A stretch of DNA of 64,000 nt from a virus (lineage: Duplodnaviria > Caudoviricetes), in IMG/VR virus record IMGVR_UViG_3300028586_000020, positions 1 to 64,000 of that record. One strand, written 5' to 3'. Below the pieces are notes generated by a model, which was given only the letters and a program-made list of their open reading frames with translations, was not told where the DNA came from and made no database searches. The position numbers and the translations under genes were made by a program. This document shows positions 4,899 to 63,305 of this stretch, in pieces (positions within the stretch are counted from its first letter, which is position 1; every line of letters starts with the position of its first letter).

Positions 4899-4995
4899 TG
4901 CATCATGCTAGTGAGAAAAATTACTCGCTAGTTATATCTCGTGAGTATCAGTACTCACACTACAATCGTCTTTTACCCAAGAGAAAGGTAGTACC

Positions 4996-6602: not shown

Positions 6603-7022
6603 ATGGCAACCAAAGCAGGTAAGGTCCAGCTCAAGGACATCAAGCGCGGCAAGACGTTTTACTACGTGCGCGTCGACTTCCCCATCATCTCCGCAGGCGT
6701 GGTAGGATTGGGTGAAGTGGAATCCGTGGTACGTCTACGCGTGACATCGCGACCATATCTGCGTCGTTTGTCCAACACGATGGCGTTCCAGTACATCAAT
6801 GACTCGAACGCGGGTGGCTACATCGATCTCGAACAGATGGAGCGCAACCATCGCCAAAATGAACTGACCGAAGAAGGACAGTATTTTGTCTTGCTGAAAA
6901 GCCGACAGGCCGCAGAACGCTTCATCAAGATGTTCGATGATCGTCCGCCTAGCAAAAAAGAAACGGTGCGTACGCTGTTGCGCGAAGCTAACCTGAACGC
7001 CAAGCAACGCGGTTTCTCCTAA
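6603..7022 (+). CDS. Hypothetical protein
   Basis: AAAGGA RBS before ATG 6603. Confidence 0.7.
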   Translation: MATKAGKVQLKDIKRGKTFYYVRVDFPIISAGVVGLGEVESVVRLRVTSRPYLRRLSNTMAFQYINDSNAGGYIDLEQMERNHRQNELTEEGQYFVLLKSRQAAERFIKMFDDRPPSKKETVRTLLREANLNAKQRGFS

Positions 7023-20994: not shown

Positions 20995-22041
20995 TTACAG
21001 ATCGATACAGATTTTGGGGAAAGTAAACGAGATAAACTTTTTGAGGGTATTCTCGATAAAGTCCATGATGGGTTTGAGTAATCCCAACGTCAGGTTGTGC
21101 ATGATGAGCTTGATCCCCATGGCGATATTCACGTCAGGGAAATTCATGTTCGGCACGAGTGGATCGGGGATAGCTGGTAGCGGTGGAAAACCAGGGAACG
21201 TGATAGATGCTAAGATGGCAGGCAAGTTAATCGATGGCAGTGTAGGCATACCAGGGATGGCTGGCAAAGAAGGCCAGTCGATGTTGGGCCACCCAGGAAA
21301 CTTCGGGATCTCCAAACTCAAGTTCGGTAATTGAATACCTGCAATCGCATTGCGCACCGCGTTTTTGACCATGTTTACCACTGAATCGAAACTCGGGAAA
21401 CTCGGCAGAGCAGGCATCGCTGCAATCTTTAACTTGTCCGTTACTTTCTTGATTAAGCCAATGACTGCGGTGGTCACGGTTTGCAAGTAGCCGCTCACCA
21501 ACGCCATCAAGGTGTGGGTAATTTCCAAGTCAGGAATTTTCAATGTTCCAAAGATGGGAATGGGGATAAACGGCAAATGCACTTTGTCAAGAATAGCTTG
21601 CTTAATGGCTGCCACCAACGCTTTGACATTCCCTGATACCAAGTCGACCAAATCGAAATTGGGTAGACCAGGTAACTTGGGTAAGAAACTGCCGATGTCC
21701 AATCCCAAGAATGAGAGCATGGGTTTGATCATGGCCATCAGCGTGGTTTGAAATTGAAACGATTGAAGCTGAATCGCGATCGTGACAAATTACAAATTCG
21801 GCATACGTAAACTACCGAGCAAAGGACTAGGCAATCCCAAGAGTGCCAAGGTAAAATCAGGTAACTTTGGGATAGCCGGTAAAGGTGGCCATTGAATATC
21901 GGGAATACCTGGAAACTTAGGTATTTCGAAATGGGGCAACTGAAAGTTCGGCAACGCCGGCGGGAAGGTCAGGAGCGGTCGAAACGCCGCCATGATGCCG
22001 TCAAAACTTGGAATGGGGGTGTCAACACAAATGTGTGGCAT
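20995..22041 (-). pseudogene. Pro/hydrophobic-rich protein split by a single in-frame TAA (21790-21792)
   Basis: ...LRMPNL*FVTIAIQLQSFQFQTTLMAMIKP... reads in frame across ORFs 21790..22041 and 20995..21738. Confidence 0.65.
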
Positions 22042-60585: not shown

Positions 60586-61386
60586 ATGTTTGGAAATCCT
60601 AACTCCGTAATTTTCGCCTGTACCTCACTTACTGGCGTTAACAAAGTTGGCACCTTAAAGAAGACGCCAGAAGGCTACTACCCGATGGTGGTGGGTGCGC
60701 TGAACGTCTTTAACTCCGGTGGTCAATTCTATCCCATCAATAACGAAGTGCGCGCGCTGTTCGAAGAATCGAGTTCGTTCATGCGTCGCGTGCAGCGTGG
60801 CGCGTTGCGGGGCGAGATGGGTCACCCCAAACCCCCACCGCGCAGTCTCAATCAGCAAGAACAGCGTCTGCTTGACCAAGAGTTCGTACGACGCAATCTG
60901 TCGATCTACGAAGAGCGGGTGTGTTGTCACCACATGAAAATTTGGCTGGACTTCGATTCTGTCAAAGACAAAGAGGGCAAACCTGTCATCTCAATCATGT
61001 CGCTCGTCAAGCCCAGTGGTGAACTTGGCCATGTGCTGGAAAAGCAACTGGAAAATCCTTACGAAAACGTGTGCTTCTCGATCCGTTCGTTTACCGACAA
61101 CCGCACCCGTTTCGGTGTGGAAGAACGTACCCTGAAAGAAATCGTCACGTTTGATAACGTCAACGAACCCGGTATCGCAACTGCGGAACGTTGGACCTCG
61201 CCTTCGCTGGAAAGCGGATTTGAAATGGAAATGAGTCGTGGTCTGCTCGACAGCGCAATCATGATGAACCGCCCAGCTGGTATTTCGGCTGAGTCGATTA
61301 TCGTTTCCCCAGCAGCATTGTACAATGCGCTGAACTGGTCACTCCCGAACGAAAAAGCGCAGCGGCGCCCTTCGCAAGGTTGGTAA
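60586..61386 (+). CDS. Prohead (head maturation) protease, gp175-like
   Basis: GALRGEMGHP, FSIRSFT and VTFDNVNEPGI motifs; C-terminal SLE and SAE self-cleavage-type sites. Confidence 0.88.
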   Translation: MFGNPNSVIFACTSLTGVNKVGTLKKTPEGYYPMVVGALNVFNSGGQFYPINNEVRALFEESSSFMRRVQRGALRGEMGHPKPPPRSLNQQEQRLLDQEFVRRNLSIYEERVCCHHMKIWLDFDSVKDKEGKPVISIMSLVKPSGELGHVLEKQLENPYENVCFSIRSFTDNRTRFGVEERTLKEIVTFDNVNEPGIATAERWTSPSLESGFEMEMSRGLLDSAIMMNRPAGISAESIIVSPAALYNALNWSLPNEKAQRRPSQGW

Positions 61387-61567: not shown

Positions 61568-62155
61568 TTGGGTACTCCCGTCAATCCCCTGTGGGATAAA
61601 GTTCTGGTTGTGTTCAAAGGCCATGAGCACAAGCTGTCCAATGTGCTCGCCAAAGCCACACCTGGTACGGTCGAAATGGAACTCGACAAAATCGATCTGG
61701 ACGCAACGACTGCTGAAGTACGTTACGACGACGCTGTCGAATGTGAAGACATTGGCCGTGGCATGCCAATCTTCTACAAACACGAAGGCAAGTTTATCGT
61801 GTTCACTGGCCGGCAAACCGTGGAAACGGTGAAGACCCACGCCAAACCAAAACCTGACGGCAAACCCATTACCGTTACCGGCCGGCTGTTGTCGTCAGTG
61901 GCACTCAAGTCGATTCGCATTGTGAAAGACGTGCCTGTCGAACCAACGCCTGCCGCTGCACCGTTTAACCCGCCGCGCTTTACTGGTAGCATCAACCCAC
62001 GCCCTACCGAGCGCCGCGTGCCTTACCAAGACCGTCCTCGCCCGACGAGTTCGAGCATGTATCCCCCGCAGTCCAGTTCGTCGCGTTACGATTCACCCTA
62101 TCCTGGTCAAACTGCCCGTACGCCCTACGGTAAGTCGACCAAAAAACCGCAGTAA
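61568..62155 (+). CDS. Hypothetical protein with a disordered Pro/Ser/Arg-rich tail; start uncertain
   Basis: GAGGA RBS before TTG 61568. Confidence 0.6.
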   Translation: MGTPVNPLWDKVLVVFKGHEHKLSNVLAKATPGTVEMELDKIDLDATTAEVRYDDAVECEDIGRGMPIFYKHEGKFIVFTGRQTVETVKTHAKPKPDGKPITVTGRLLSSVALKSIRIVKDVPVEPTPAAAPFNPPRFTGSINPRPTERRVPYQDRPRPTSSSMYPPQSSSSRYDSPYPGQTARTPYGKSTKKPQ

Positions 62156-62174
62156 TCTTTGTAGTACCGTTTAT

Positions 62175-62310
62175 GCTAGAGGTGGCCGAGTGGCTGAAGG
62201 CAGGTCCGCTGAACCGAGAAAGATGAAAATCCTATCGGAGGTAGATACCTGGAAGGGTGAGTTAATCTCACCGGAGTAAGGCATGGGTTCGAATCCCATC
62301 CTCTAGCGCC
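62175..62310 (+). tRNA. Atypical tRNA-like RNA (Ser/Leu-like D-arm) with a 65-nt insert in place of the anticodon loop; isotype cannot be assigned
   Basis: Acceptor (G)CTAGAGG/CCTCTAG(C); D-arm GCC-GAGTGGCTGAA-GGC; T-arm ATGGG-TTCGAAT-CCCAT. Confidence 0.75.
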
Positions 62311-62352
62311 TTGTTTTAACCCGTAGTACATACCACCAAAAAGGAAACCAGT

Positions 62353-62862
62353 ATGAGTACCGATAAAGCCGACATCAAGCTGAACCCAGCCGTCGAAGAA
62401 ATGTCCAGCAAGATCCGCGAAGCCATCAGCGTCACGATCACCGGTAAAGGCGGCGACGTCGCTAACGCCGAGAACATCTACGAAAGCCTGCTGCCTGCTG
62501 ACATCCCTGCCGACCTGGTCAAGCGCATCAATACCCACAACGAAATGTTCATGGCTGCCGCCGTCGACGCCGTCGGCGATACCTCGCGCGACTCCGCTTC
62601 CCAGAACGCCGACCTGACCGTCGTCAACGCCAGCTTCAACATGACCGGCCGCAACAAGTTCGATGTCCAATGGGACCGCGAAGTCGAACGCAACGCCGGC
62701 ATCGCCGAAAAGGGCAAAGTCGCACCGAAGAAAACCGTCTACGGCGCCATGTCGGCCAAGCTGACCGTGGCAGGCACCGATAGCGGCACCGGCGAAATGA
62801 ACAAGGTCATGCGTCGCCAGAAACAAGCCGCCCACGACCTGTTCTCGACCGCCACCGCCTAA
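62353..62862 (+). CDS. Hypothetical conserved protein, probably highly expressed
   Basis: AAGGA RBS; strongly C-ending codons. Confidence 0.75.
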   Translation: MSTDKADIKLNPAVEEMSSKIREAISVTITGKGGDVANAENIYESLLPADIPADLVKRINTHNEMFMAAAVDAVGDTSRDSASQNADLTVVNASFNMTGRNKFDVQWDREVERNAGIAEKGKVAPKKTVYGAMSAKLTVAGTDSGTGEMNKVMRRQKQAAHDLFSTATA

Positions 62863-62939
62863 GCATCGCCGGCCTGGGCCACACGGCAAGCATGAAAGCT
62901 CACCAGGCACACCCATGCAAGCCCAACGGCTAAGCCAAA

Positions 62940-63300
62940 AAATCTGGCGTACTCCGCAGCGTCTACCAAACGGTACGGAGTACGCTAGTAAAAGGAACTA
63001 GGGTCATCCTTGTCTTGTATTACATACATCGATGTACCAGGCACACAGACAGAGTATTGCCTGGTACAGAAGGTGTCACTGTAAGACGAAGTTCTCTTTA
63101 AGAGAACATTCCCTCATCTCTTTCGAAACATACCTCTTAGCCTGACGGGGCAAACACATGGGGCGCATTGGTCCTCATCGAAAGAGATGTAAGTAGTCCA
63201 TGTCCGCTACCGTAAGGGAAGTTGGCAAACAACAGACATGGTTGTGACCAGGCTCTCGCTCCTTCGGGAGCGAGAGCCTGAGTTATGATGTCTCTTTTTT
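62940..63300. ncRNA. Candidate structured ncRNA or leader region
   Basis: At least six long stems within an ORF-free gap of about 600 nt. Confidence 0.4.
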
Positions 63301-63305
63301 TTTTC
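63249..63305 (+). terminator. Perfect 14-bp hairpin with downstream T tract
   Basis: caggctctcgctcc-ttcg-ggagcgagagcctg. Confidence 0.75.

Follow-up and report, generated by a model that had tools for sequence, protein, structure and literature searches.

A predicted class II tRNA-shaped RNA with a closed rod in place of the anticodon loop, encoded by a phiKZ-like jumbo phage

Results

We analysed a 64,000-nucleotide (nt) stretch of viral DNA, hereafter the window, which spans positions 1–64,000 of a virus record of 79 kb in IMG/VR (IMGVR_UViG_3300028586_000020) with an estimated completeness of ∼29%, and concentrated on an element at 62175–62310 (+) that encodes a tRNA-shaped RNA. Comparative modelling represents this element as a class II, tRNA-Ser-type body in which a closed rod replaces the anticodon loop. 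The element cannot take part in decoding, and we consider it reasonably probable that it is a selectively maintained tRNA mimic that is excised by RNase P and RNase Z.

Architecture of the element

The Rfam tRNA model RF00005 aligned to 62176–62307 with a score of 36.4 bits (E = 5.5e-4 across the whole 64-kb window); since the gathering score of this model is 29 bits, the element exceeds chance. The alignment places 75 nt at the site of the model's 17-nt anticodon arm. Standard tRNA finders miss or mislabel genes like this one: ARAGORN did not call the element under default settings, and with introns allowed it reported an implausible tRNA-Gln(ctg) that had a weak anticodon stem and an intron of 38 nt. 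The comparisons below use a set of three homologues, namely the window's own copy, the copy at the same spot in a sister phage (L043, positions 1321–1455) and a copy in the tRNA cluster of a relative (G004:17717–17831).

Numbered as a tRNA, the RNA has G−1 at 62175, C1 at 62176 and the discriminator C73 at 62307, which is followed by GCC; all parts lie on the + strand. The 5′ strand of the acceptor stem, CTAGAGG (62176–62182), pairs with CCTCTAG (62300–62306), and all 7 bp are kept in L043. Together with C73 the 3′ strand occupies 62300–62307, with no CCA encoded (the downstream sequence reads C-GCC-T). The D arm (62185–62201) is of the bacterial tRNA-Ser type, with a 3-bp GCC/GGC stem and an 11-nt loop, GAGTGGCTGAA, that carries A14, G15 and G18-G19. 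It differs from that of L043 by a single C-to-T change in the loop, and the same D arm is found in the G004 homologue. The T arm (62283–62299) consists of ATGGG, the loop TTCGAAT and CCCAT. The nucleotides of the elbow and tRNA core are present in the window (U8, A14, G15, G18-G19, C48, T54-T55-C56, A58 and G53-C61).

Between the D and T arms lie two further arms. At the anticodon position, 62204–62246 form an elongated arm with no anticodon, in which a 7-bp helix, termed P2 (62204–62210/62240–62246), is continued by a capped rod made up of GAA, the helices CCGA/TCGG (62214–62217/62235–62238) and GAT/ATC (62222–62224/62229–62231), and a GAAA cap (62225–62228). A long variable arm of 34 nt follows at 62248–62281, its base formed by CCTGG (62248–62252) with GT (62276–62277) and AGG (62279–62281); beyond this base helix come an AAG/GGA internal loop and the hairpin GGTGAG-TTAAT-CTCACC (62256–62272). 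One unpaired nucleotide flanks the variable arm on each side (A62247 and C62282, the latter being position 48), as in class II tRNAs, and C48 stands opposite G15 in the class II fold. These single unpaired nucleotides, the C48–G15 opposition and the tRNA-Ser-type D arm are the reasons for modelling the element as a class II tRNA body. The anticodon stem is extended to 7 bp and runs into the closed rod, and the modelled RNA therefore has no anticodon loop.

Homologues favour a class II fold

An initial annotation of this DNA had described a tRNA-like RNA with a three-hairpin domain in place of the anticodon loop, closed by imperfect pairing of GGTCC (62203–62207) with GGAGT (62273–62277). All of the pairings it listed are present in the sequence, including the acceptor stem, the D and T arms, the hairpins at 62214–62238, 62239–62250 and 62256–62272, and the closing helix, which contains one G-G mismatch. 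The overall arrangement did not hold up, however, since both the homologues and RNAalifold speak for a class II tRNA in which the anticodon arm is elongated and the variable arm long. The AGGT-AGAT-ACCT hairpin can form in the window but competes with a better-conserved long-range helix. Similarly, an eighth acceptor pair between G62175 and C62307 exists in the window but is not kept in L043, where A is opposite C. In the class II model the third hairpin of the initial annotation becomes the tip of the 34-nt variable arm.

The three-hairpin fold pairs 94.5% of cells, and its CCGA/UCGG helix is broken in L043, compared with 97.2% of cells paired in the class II fold. The two folds tie at −39.5 kcal/mol in the window; in L043 the class II fold is the minimum-energy fold at −44.8 kcal/mol, versus −34.5 kcal/mol for the three-hairpin fold. 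RNAalifold predicts the class II fold unguided, including P2 and the variable arm. Substitutions between the window and L043 include double compensatory changes in the acceptor stem (pair 2-71, U-A to C-G) and the T stem (pair 49-65, A-U to G-C), together with a G-C to G-U change at acceptor pair 7-66, and each of three substitutions in the 5′ strand of P2 in L043 improves pairing with the invariant GGTAGAT. In the G004 homologue P2 reads AUCGAUC/GAUAGAU, with U-A as the sixth pair where the window has C-G, and P2 passes straight into three more pairs to give a 10-bp rod with a GUGG tetraloop.

No conserved anticodon loop and no spliced form

The initial annotation favoured a tRNA mimic over a decoding tRNA, and this view is strengthened by the comparison with L043, since no candidate anticodon loop keeps U33 between the two phages: in L043 CUGAA has become CCGAA, and the loop UUAAU has become CUAGU. 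The element has the acceptor, D and T arms and the elbow of a decoding tRNA, and lacks a 5-bp anticodon stem and a loop of 7 nt that would carry U33, the anticodon and, at position 37, a purine. Instead, a 7-bp helix encloses 29–33 nt at the anticodon position in the window and L043. As originally noted, the element encodes no CCA and has no clear anticodon, and none that it could use was identified. A suppressor tRNA (loop UUA in the window, CUA in L043) was considered and dropped, the loop being of 5 nt without U33 geometry. The TAA-interrupted gene that was a candidate for this idea, a 348-codon frame with one in-frame TAA at 20995–22041 (−), has no homologue in G001–G004 for comparison.

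Parts of the locus are contained in 20 leaf-litter metatranscriptome runs, and RNA contigs over the element were examined in four of these (X4–X7). In one contig (X4 record 2, 62071–62669) the element is unspliced and contiguous with both flanking open reading frames (ORFs); in another (X7 record 9, 62157–62525) it is unspliced and contiguous with the downstream ORF only. Runs X5 and X6 have no contig over the element and are uninformative either way. No spliced form of the element was found among the RNA contigs of the four runs, although assembled contigs cannot show RNA ends. Both outcomes that would have counted against the initial annotation failed to appear: the element is present in contigs from RNA libraries, and relatives do not have a normal tRNA there but are without the element altogether or have it in the same expanded form.

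The catalytic core of group I introns (P3–P9) requires at least ∼200 nt. The insert, at 29–65 nt depending on the fold, is too small to be one, as the initial annotation had pointed out, and no Rfam intron or ribozyme family matched the element at E up to 10, a scan that returned the tRNA family, two chance-level hits and no other family. We consider it very unlikely that the element is an intron-containing tRNA gene, in which removal of a small intron in or near the anticodon loop would leave a decoding class II tRNA. Such a reading draws on the ARAGORN call with its 38-nt intron, on the tRNA introns of unknown mechanism reported as 'enigmatic' in Lak megaphages (PMC6784885) and on class I tRNAs in the relatives' clusters, which carry conserved 55–70-nt inserts between intact anticodon-stem strands. 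The tRNA-Gln(ctg) call was nevertheless rejected because it is not conserved in L043, and no contiguous excision gives both the window and L043 a canonical loop, in which position 33 is U and position 37 a purine. Candidate U33 positions mutate, one such change improving helix pairing instead, and the G004 homologue offers only its GUGG tetraloop. Moreover, genes for EndA, RtcB and Rnl2 were absent from five records of the clade (G000–G004, two of them complete genomes; host enzymes were not examined); a search for the Rnl1 family had no positive control and was uninformative. The only joint in the RNA contigs, its two sides separated by 37 unrelated letters, is that of an ordinary tRNA-Ser of foreign origin. 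The Lak genes resemble the element in being tRNA genes of large phages with tens of structured nucleotides in the anticodon region that bacterial tRNA finders miss. Removal of their inserts, however, allows an anticodon and a tRNA type to be assigned (PMC6784885), whereas no excision restores a conserved anticodon loop in the element.

Conservation and patchy distribution

The L043/L044 lineage has a diverged copy at exactly the window's syntenic site, and that of L043 scores 36.1 bits with the Rfam tRNA model. The element is 84% identical between the window and L043, a value that falls to 77% in the downstream ORF and to 60% in the upstream one. The window and L043 share without change a block of 23 nt (62239–62261) and the two stem strands of the variable-arm hairpin, the loop of this hairpin alone having changed in L043. 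The distal rod, on the other hand, has been rebuilt between the window and L043, and the rod interior measures 29 nt in the window, 33 in L043 and 10 in G004. The G004 homologue shares with the window the D arm, the 3′ strand of the helix (GAUAGAU versus GGUAGAU) and AAGGGUGA in the long variable arm. Judged from these sequence comparisons, the element appears to be selectively maintained.

Across the five records G000–G004, a model built here (R1) retrieved from this family only the window's own copy, and the G004 homologue surfaced in a direct search of the tRNA-cluster locus. At the syntenic site, upstream of a 169-amino-acid ORF, the element is missing from G001–G004, L041/L042, L045, L046 and L048, and most relatives have a bare spacer of 45–77 nt there. 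G001, which is without the element, has flanks 96–97% identical to those of L043; because of this near identity the gain or loss is recent, and the element behaves as a small cassette gained or lost between near-identical phages. Further copies were sought more widely. A BLAST search of 62100–62400 against GenBank phages gave no match, no other copies of the insert were found in G000–G004, a scan of viral contigs with the conserved variable-arm sequence gave no match, and a metagenome scan with the downstream protein returned G001 again and nothing else.

Proposed role and competing explanations

The data establish the fold features, their conservation and the presence in RNA-library contigs of the unspliced element joined to its neighbours. 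From the way in which bacteria handle tRNA precursors that lack an encoded CCA, we infer the following course of events. The element would be transcribed together with the neighbouring late structural genes; host RNase P would then cut its 5′ end, and RNase Z would cut after C73, which is possible because CCA is not encoded. Both cuts would also split the polycistronic mRNA. Following addition of CCA, an RNA of ∼132 nt would persist as a stable tRNA look-alike, acting through proteins that read the tRNA body and the variable arm rather than an anticodon, the strictly conserved variable arm being the likely contact surface. The role we prefer is that of a mimic or decoy for a tRNA-binding host factor, for example a tRNA-directed defence nuclease or a tRNA enzyme, and a decoy against tRNA-directed defences would be an attractive one.

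Several points weigh against this proposal. At depths of ∼5–6, DNA carry-over into the RNA libraries is possible, and the data show neither mature ends nor stability, CCA addition or a binding partner. Three homologues supply little covariation for either the 7-bp helix or the variable arm, the three-hairpin fold is equally stable in the window itself, and the folding z-scores are unremarkable (−2.3 for the window, −0.5 for L043). The element is dispensable, since its presence is patchy among close relatives, and a neutral or selfish passenger could be distributed in the same way. Its position would be accounted for just as well by a handle for mRNA processing that acts purely in cis, and the decoy role is one that we only infer.

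The main rival is indeed that the element serves in cis alone, its tRNA shape recruiting RNase P and RNase Z to separate cistrons and set mRNA ends and stabilities, with the released RNA doing nothing further itself. Both RNases require acceptor and T arms only, and an encoded CCA blocks RNase Z cleavage. The element, with no encoded CCA, is an RNase Z-type substrate, and it lies outside any tRNA cluster in a 197-nt gap between co-oriented genes, with both of which it is contiguous in an RNA contig. Comparable modules are the t-elements documented in plant mitochondria (PMC1920247) and mascRNA at the end of MALAT1. A handle of this kind is nonetheless rather unlikely to be the whole explanation, as the element also keeps its D arm, elbow nucleotides, 7-bp helix and a variable arm with 23 identical nucleotides; the G004 homologue sits inside a tRNA cluster, where there is no mRNA to punctuate; and for most relatives a 45–77-nt spacer suffices. 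That the element is instead a decaying or neutral relic, a former tRNA-Ser gene disrupted by insertions and without function, seems quite unlikely. It is patchy and dispensable, with an element-less phage 96–97% identical to L043, its distal rod is free to change and its folding energy is unexceptional. However, substitutions in the tRNA core are compensatory or lie in loops, the nucleotides of the tertiary contacts are all intact, the element is more conserved than the flanking coding sequence and contains the 23-nt identical block, and the same unusual design occurs again in the G004 paralogue.

The initial annotation had also raised a transfer-messenger RNA (tmRNA)-like or Y-RNA-like molecule. 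A tmRNA-like or a selenocysteine (Sec)/allo-tRNA-like RNA is extremely unlikely, as the defining features are lacking. tRNA-Sec and allo-tRNAs have 13 bp in the stacked acceptor and T stems (8/5, 9/4, 8/4 or 9/3) and a 6-bp D stem. In the window G62175–C62307 does give an 8-bp acceptor stem on a 5-bp T stem, but the eighth pair becomes A opposite C in L043, and position −1 of the G004 homologue is a C, unpairable with C73. Furthermore, the D stem has 3 bp rather than 6, and there is neither a UCA anticodon nor an anticodon loop. An 18-codon frame inside the insert (ATG at 62223 to TAA at 62279) recalls a tmRNA tag, but it is broken in L043, which has no ATG and an in-frame TAG; pair 3-70 is A-U rather than the G3-U70 of alanine identity; and neither the tmRNA mode of ARAGORN nor the Rfam tmRNA and tRNA-Sec models found anything. 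As to Y RNAs, the two RNA ends of YrlA/Y RNA form the Ro-binding helix, with the tRNA-like module at the far end and a Ro (Rsr) gene nearby. In the element the two ends form the acceptor stem, so the topology differs, and no Y-RNA family matched in the Rfam scan.

Expanded tRNA-like genes of the clade share an acceptor end

Model R1 also detects further expanded tRNA-like genes in the clade. C73 without an encoded CCA is common to all eight expanded genes of the clade that were examined; G−1 occurs in six of them, the exceptions being L043 with A and the G004 homologue with C. In these phages, ordinary tRNAs mostly have CCA encoded after A73 or G73. The clade's genuine tRNA-His has G−1:C73 and no encoded CCA, like the expanded genes. 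The shared end may block charging by seryl-tRNA synthetase (SerRS) and leucyl-tRNA synthetase (LeuRS), may allow charging by histidyl-tRNA synthetase (HisRS), or may only shape processing. A wider and rather doubtful proposal is that these phages possess a dedicated class of RNAs with anticodon-less Ser- or Leu-type bodies, always with C73, usually with G−1 and never with CCA, that move between phages as cassettes. In such a class the acceptor end would set charging, either blocking SerRS and LeuRS so that the mimic stays uncharged or diverting the RNA to HisRS, and the conserved variable arm would bind and neutralise a host tRNA-directed defence factor.

Two other families of expanded genes were noted. 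One, of ∼160 nt, lies downstream of the 169-amino-acid ORF in two relatives that lack the window's element (L041 2544–2705 and L046 2321–2488), and has a Ser-type D loop, the acceptor GAAGAGU/ACUCUUC, G−1, C73, no CCA and a conserved internal helix with compensatory changes. The other, of 145–156 nt, is found in the tRNA clusters of G001, G003 and G004 (L018 1774–1928 (−), L026 1812–1956 and G003:162274–162429); it combines a Leu-type D arm with a 10-bp anticodon stem, itself showing compensatory changes, that closes a 9–10-nt loop, a variable region of ∼75 nt, G−1, C73 and no CCA. The class I tRNAs with a conserved 55–70-nt insert (L026 1501–1620, corresponding to G001:190957–191076, and L024 1888–2025, corresponding to G003:162827–162964) have A73 and an encoded CCA. 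In their inserts a hairpin changes in compensatory fashion from CCGGC/GCCGG to CCAGC/GCTGG and a GCC-GAAA-GGC hairpin is kept, making them candidates for small introns or for a further kind of anticodon-less RNA.

Related shapes also occur at greater distance. Contigs from bacterial metagenome-assembled genomes (L058 6227–6314 (−) and L064 2160–2250 (−)) contain rare Ser-type bodies with G73 in which 26–27 nt replace the 7-nt anticodon loop, and in L064 a 7-bp stem closes this insert. L056 appears to combine a Ser-type body with a CCA (Trp) anticodon and a variable arm of 45 nt. Finally, the IMG/VR contigs L029/L031/L033/L035, L030, L032 and L028 contain tRNA-like genes in which a Ser-type D arm goes with long structured middles, unrelated in sequence to that of the window's element; L030 has a hairpin with a CUGAAAA loop inside a 51-nt insert.

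Relation to described tRNA-like RNAs

The RNAs described so far that are closest in kind are T4 rnaC (species 1 RNA, 139 nt) and T5 RNA1 (144 nt) and RNA2 (125 nt), which like the element are phage-encoded, lack an anticodon arm and possess both an acceptor-like stem and a T arm of the tRNA type. T4 rnaC has CCGGG-UUCGAAU-CCCGG beside an 8-bp terminal stem, and in T5 RNA1 a class II (Leu-type) D arm and a T arm accompany a large insert, RNA2 being annotated likewise; by their GenBank annotations, none of the three has had a function assigned for decades. As the sequences are not homologous, the resemblance is of kind only and not of family: T4 rnaC scored 19.8 bits with model R1, essentially owing to the T arm, and neither T5 RNA1 nor RNA2 was matched. 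The element is set apart from these RNAs by its terminal C73, its complete Ser-type D arm, the 7-bp helix at its anticodon position and its variable arm of 34 nt. Whereas the T4 and T5 RNAs lie within the tRNA clusters of T-even and T5 phages, the element is located between structural genes of a phiKZ-like jumbo phage.

Compared with the class II tRNA-Ser of bacteria and phages (RF00005), the element has the same acceptor, D and T arms and elbow, a D arm of the form GCC-GAGUGGCUGAA-GGC and one unpaired nucleotide on each side of the variable arm. It differs in lacking a 7-nt anticodon loop, in a variable arm about twice the normal length, and in combining C1-G72 with C73 and no CCA where tRNA-Ser has G73; the clade's normal tRNA-Ser has G73 and an encoded CCA. 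In the engineered 'tRNA scaffold' the anticodon loop of a tRNA body is swapped for a structured RNA insert, which confers stability and correct processing. The element, by contrast, is a natural gene, and the variable arm rather than the insert at the anticodon position is its most conserved extra part. The t-elements (PMC1920247) and mascRNA at the 3′ end of MALAT1 are likewise non-decoding, tRNA-shaped modules in longer transcripts, for which cuts by RNase P and RNase Z are expected. They are, however, usually reduced to what these RNases need, whereas the element keeps a full tRNA core and conserved extra arms; its processing is a prediction.

A literature search found no description of such an RNA in phiKZ-like or other jumbo phages. 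The tRNA-like stable RNAs of T4 and T5 have been known for some fifty years with no function assigned. To these the element adds a clean natural comparison, in which flanks are 96–97% identical and one phage has the cassette while the other does not; a defined, conserved architecture of full class II tRNA core, closed rod and invariant variable arm; and a C73/no-CCA signature that several expanded tRNA-like genes share within a single clade of jumbo phages of the nucleus-forming type. Taken together, the comparison, the architecture and the signature make the role of anticodon-less tRNA mimics in phages experimentally approachable.

Genomic context

The window's genome is a fragment of a phiKZ-like jumbo phage, because it encodes a Peptidase_S80 prohead protease (60586–61386, E = 3e-71) and its relatives are ∼270-kb phages with phiKZ-type structural genes. 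The sequencing runs that contain the phage come from leaf litter and soil. The element sits in a 197-nt gap with a co-oriented gene on either side and no tRNA cluster: an upstream ORF of 195 amino acids (61568–62155, +) that stops 20 nt ahead of the element, and the downstream ORF of 169 amino acids (62353–62862, +) that starts 45 nt past it, neither belonging to a Pfam family. Elsewhere in the window, ARAGORN reports a tRNA-Ser(cga) at 6788–6866 (−) that has no Rfam support, lies in coding-like sequence and is probably a false positive.

The motif GTAGTAC occurs at 62161–62167 (+), 8 nt upstream of the element, and again at 62323–62329, upstream of the next gene and ∼30 nt before its start at 62353. 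It is present six times in the window against 2.7 expected, with copies just upstream of the start codons at ∼4996 and 39394, and it also precedes a tRNA in the G003 tRNA cluster; TTTTACC is often close to the copies at 4988, 39344, 62161 and 62323. These two short motifs, which may be promoter elements, border the cassette and recur upstream of genes and tRNAs in the clade, while relatives without the element have one GTAGTAC copy at the syntenic site. The GTAGTAC repeats were considered as a target-site duplication, but a recurring regulatory motif was judged more likely, and GTAGTAC is a candidate phage promoter motif for a phage RNA polymerase and a possible site of cassette recombination.

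In run X4 the contig depth rises from ∼6 to 288 at 62671 (window 62671–62800, on towards 63304), pointing to an abundant RNA with its start within the 3′ end of the downstream ORF that enters 62863–63304, a densely paired non-coding stretch ending at a strong terminator near 63250–63300.

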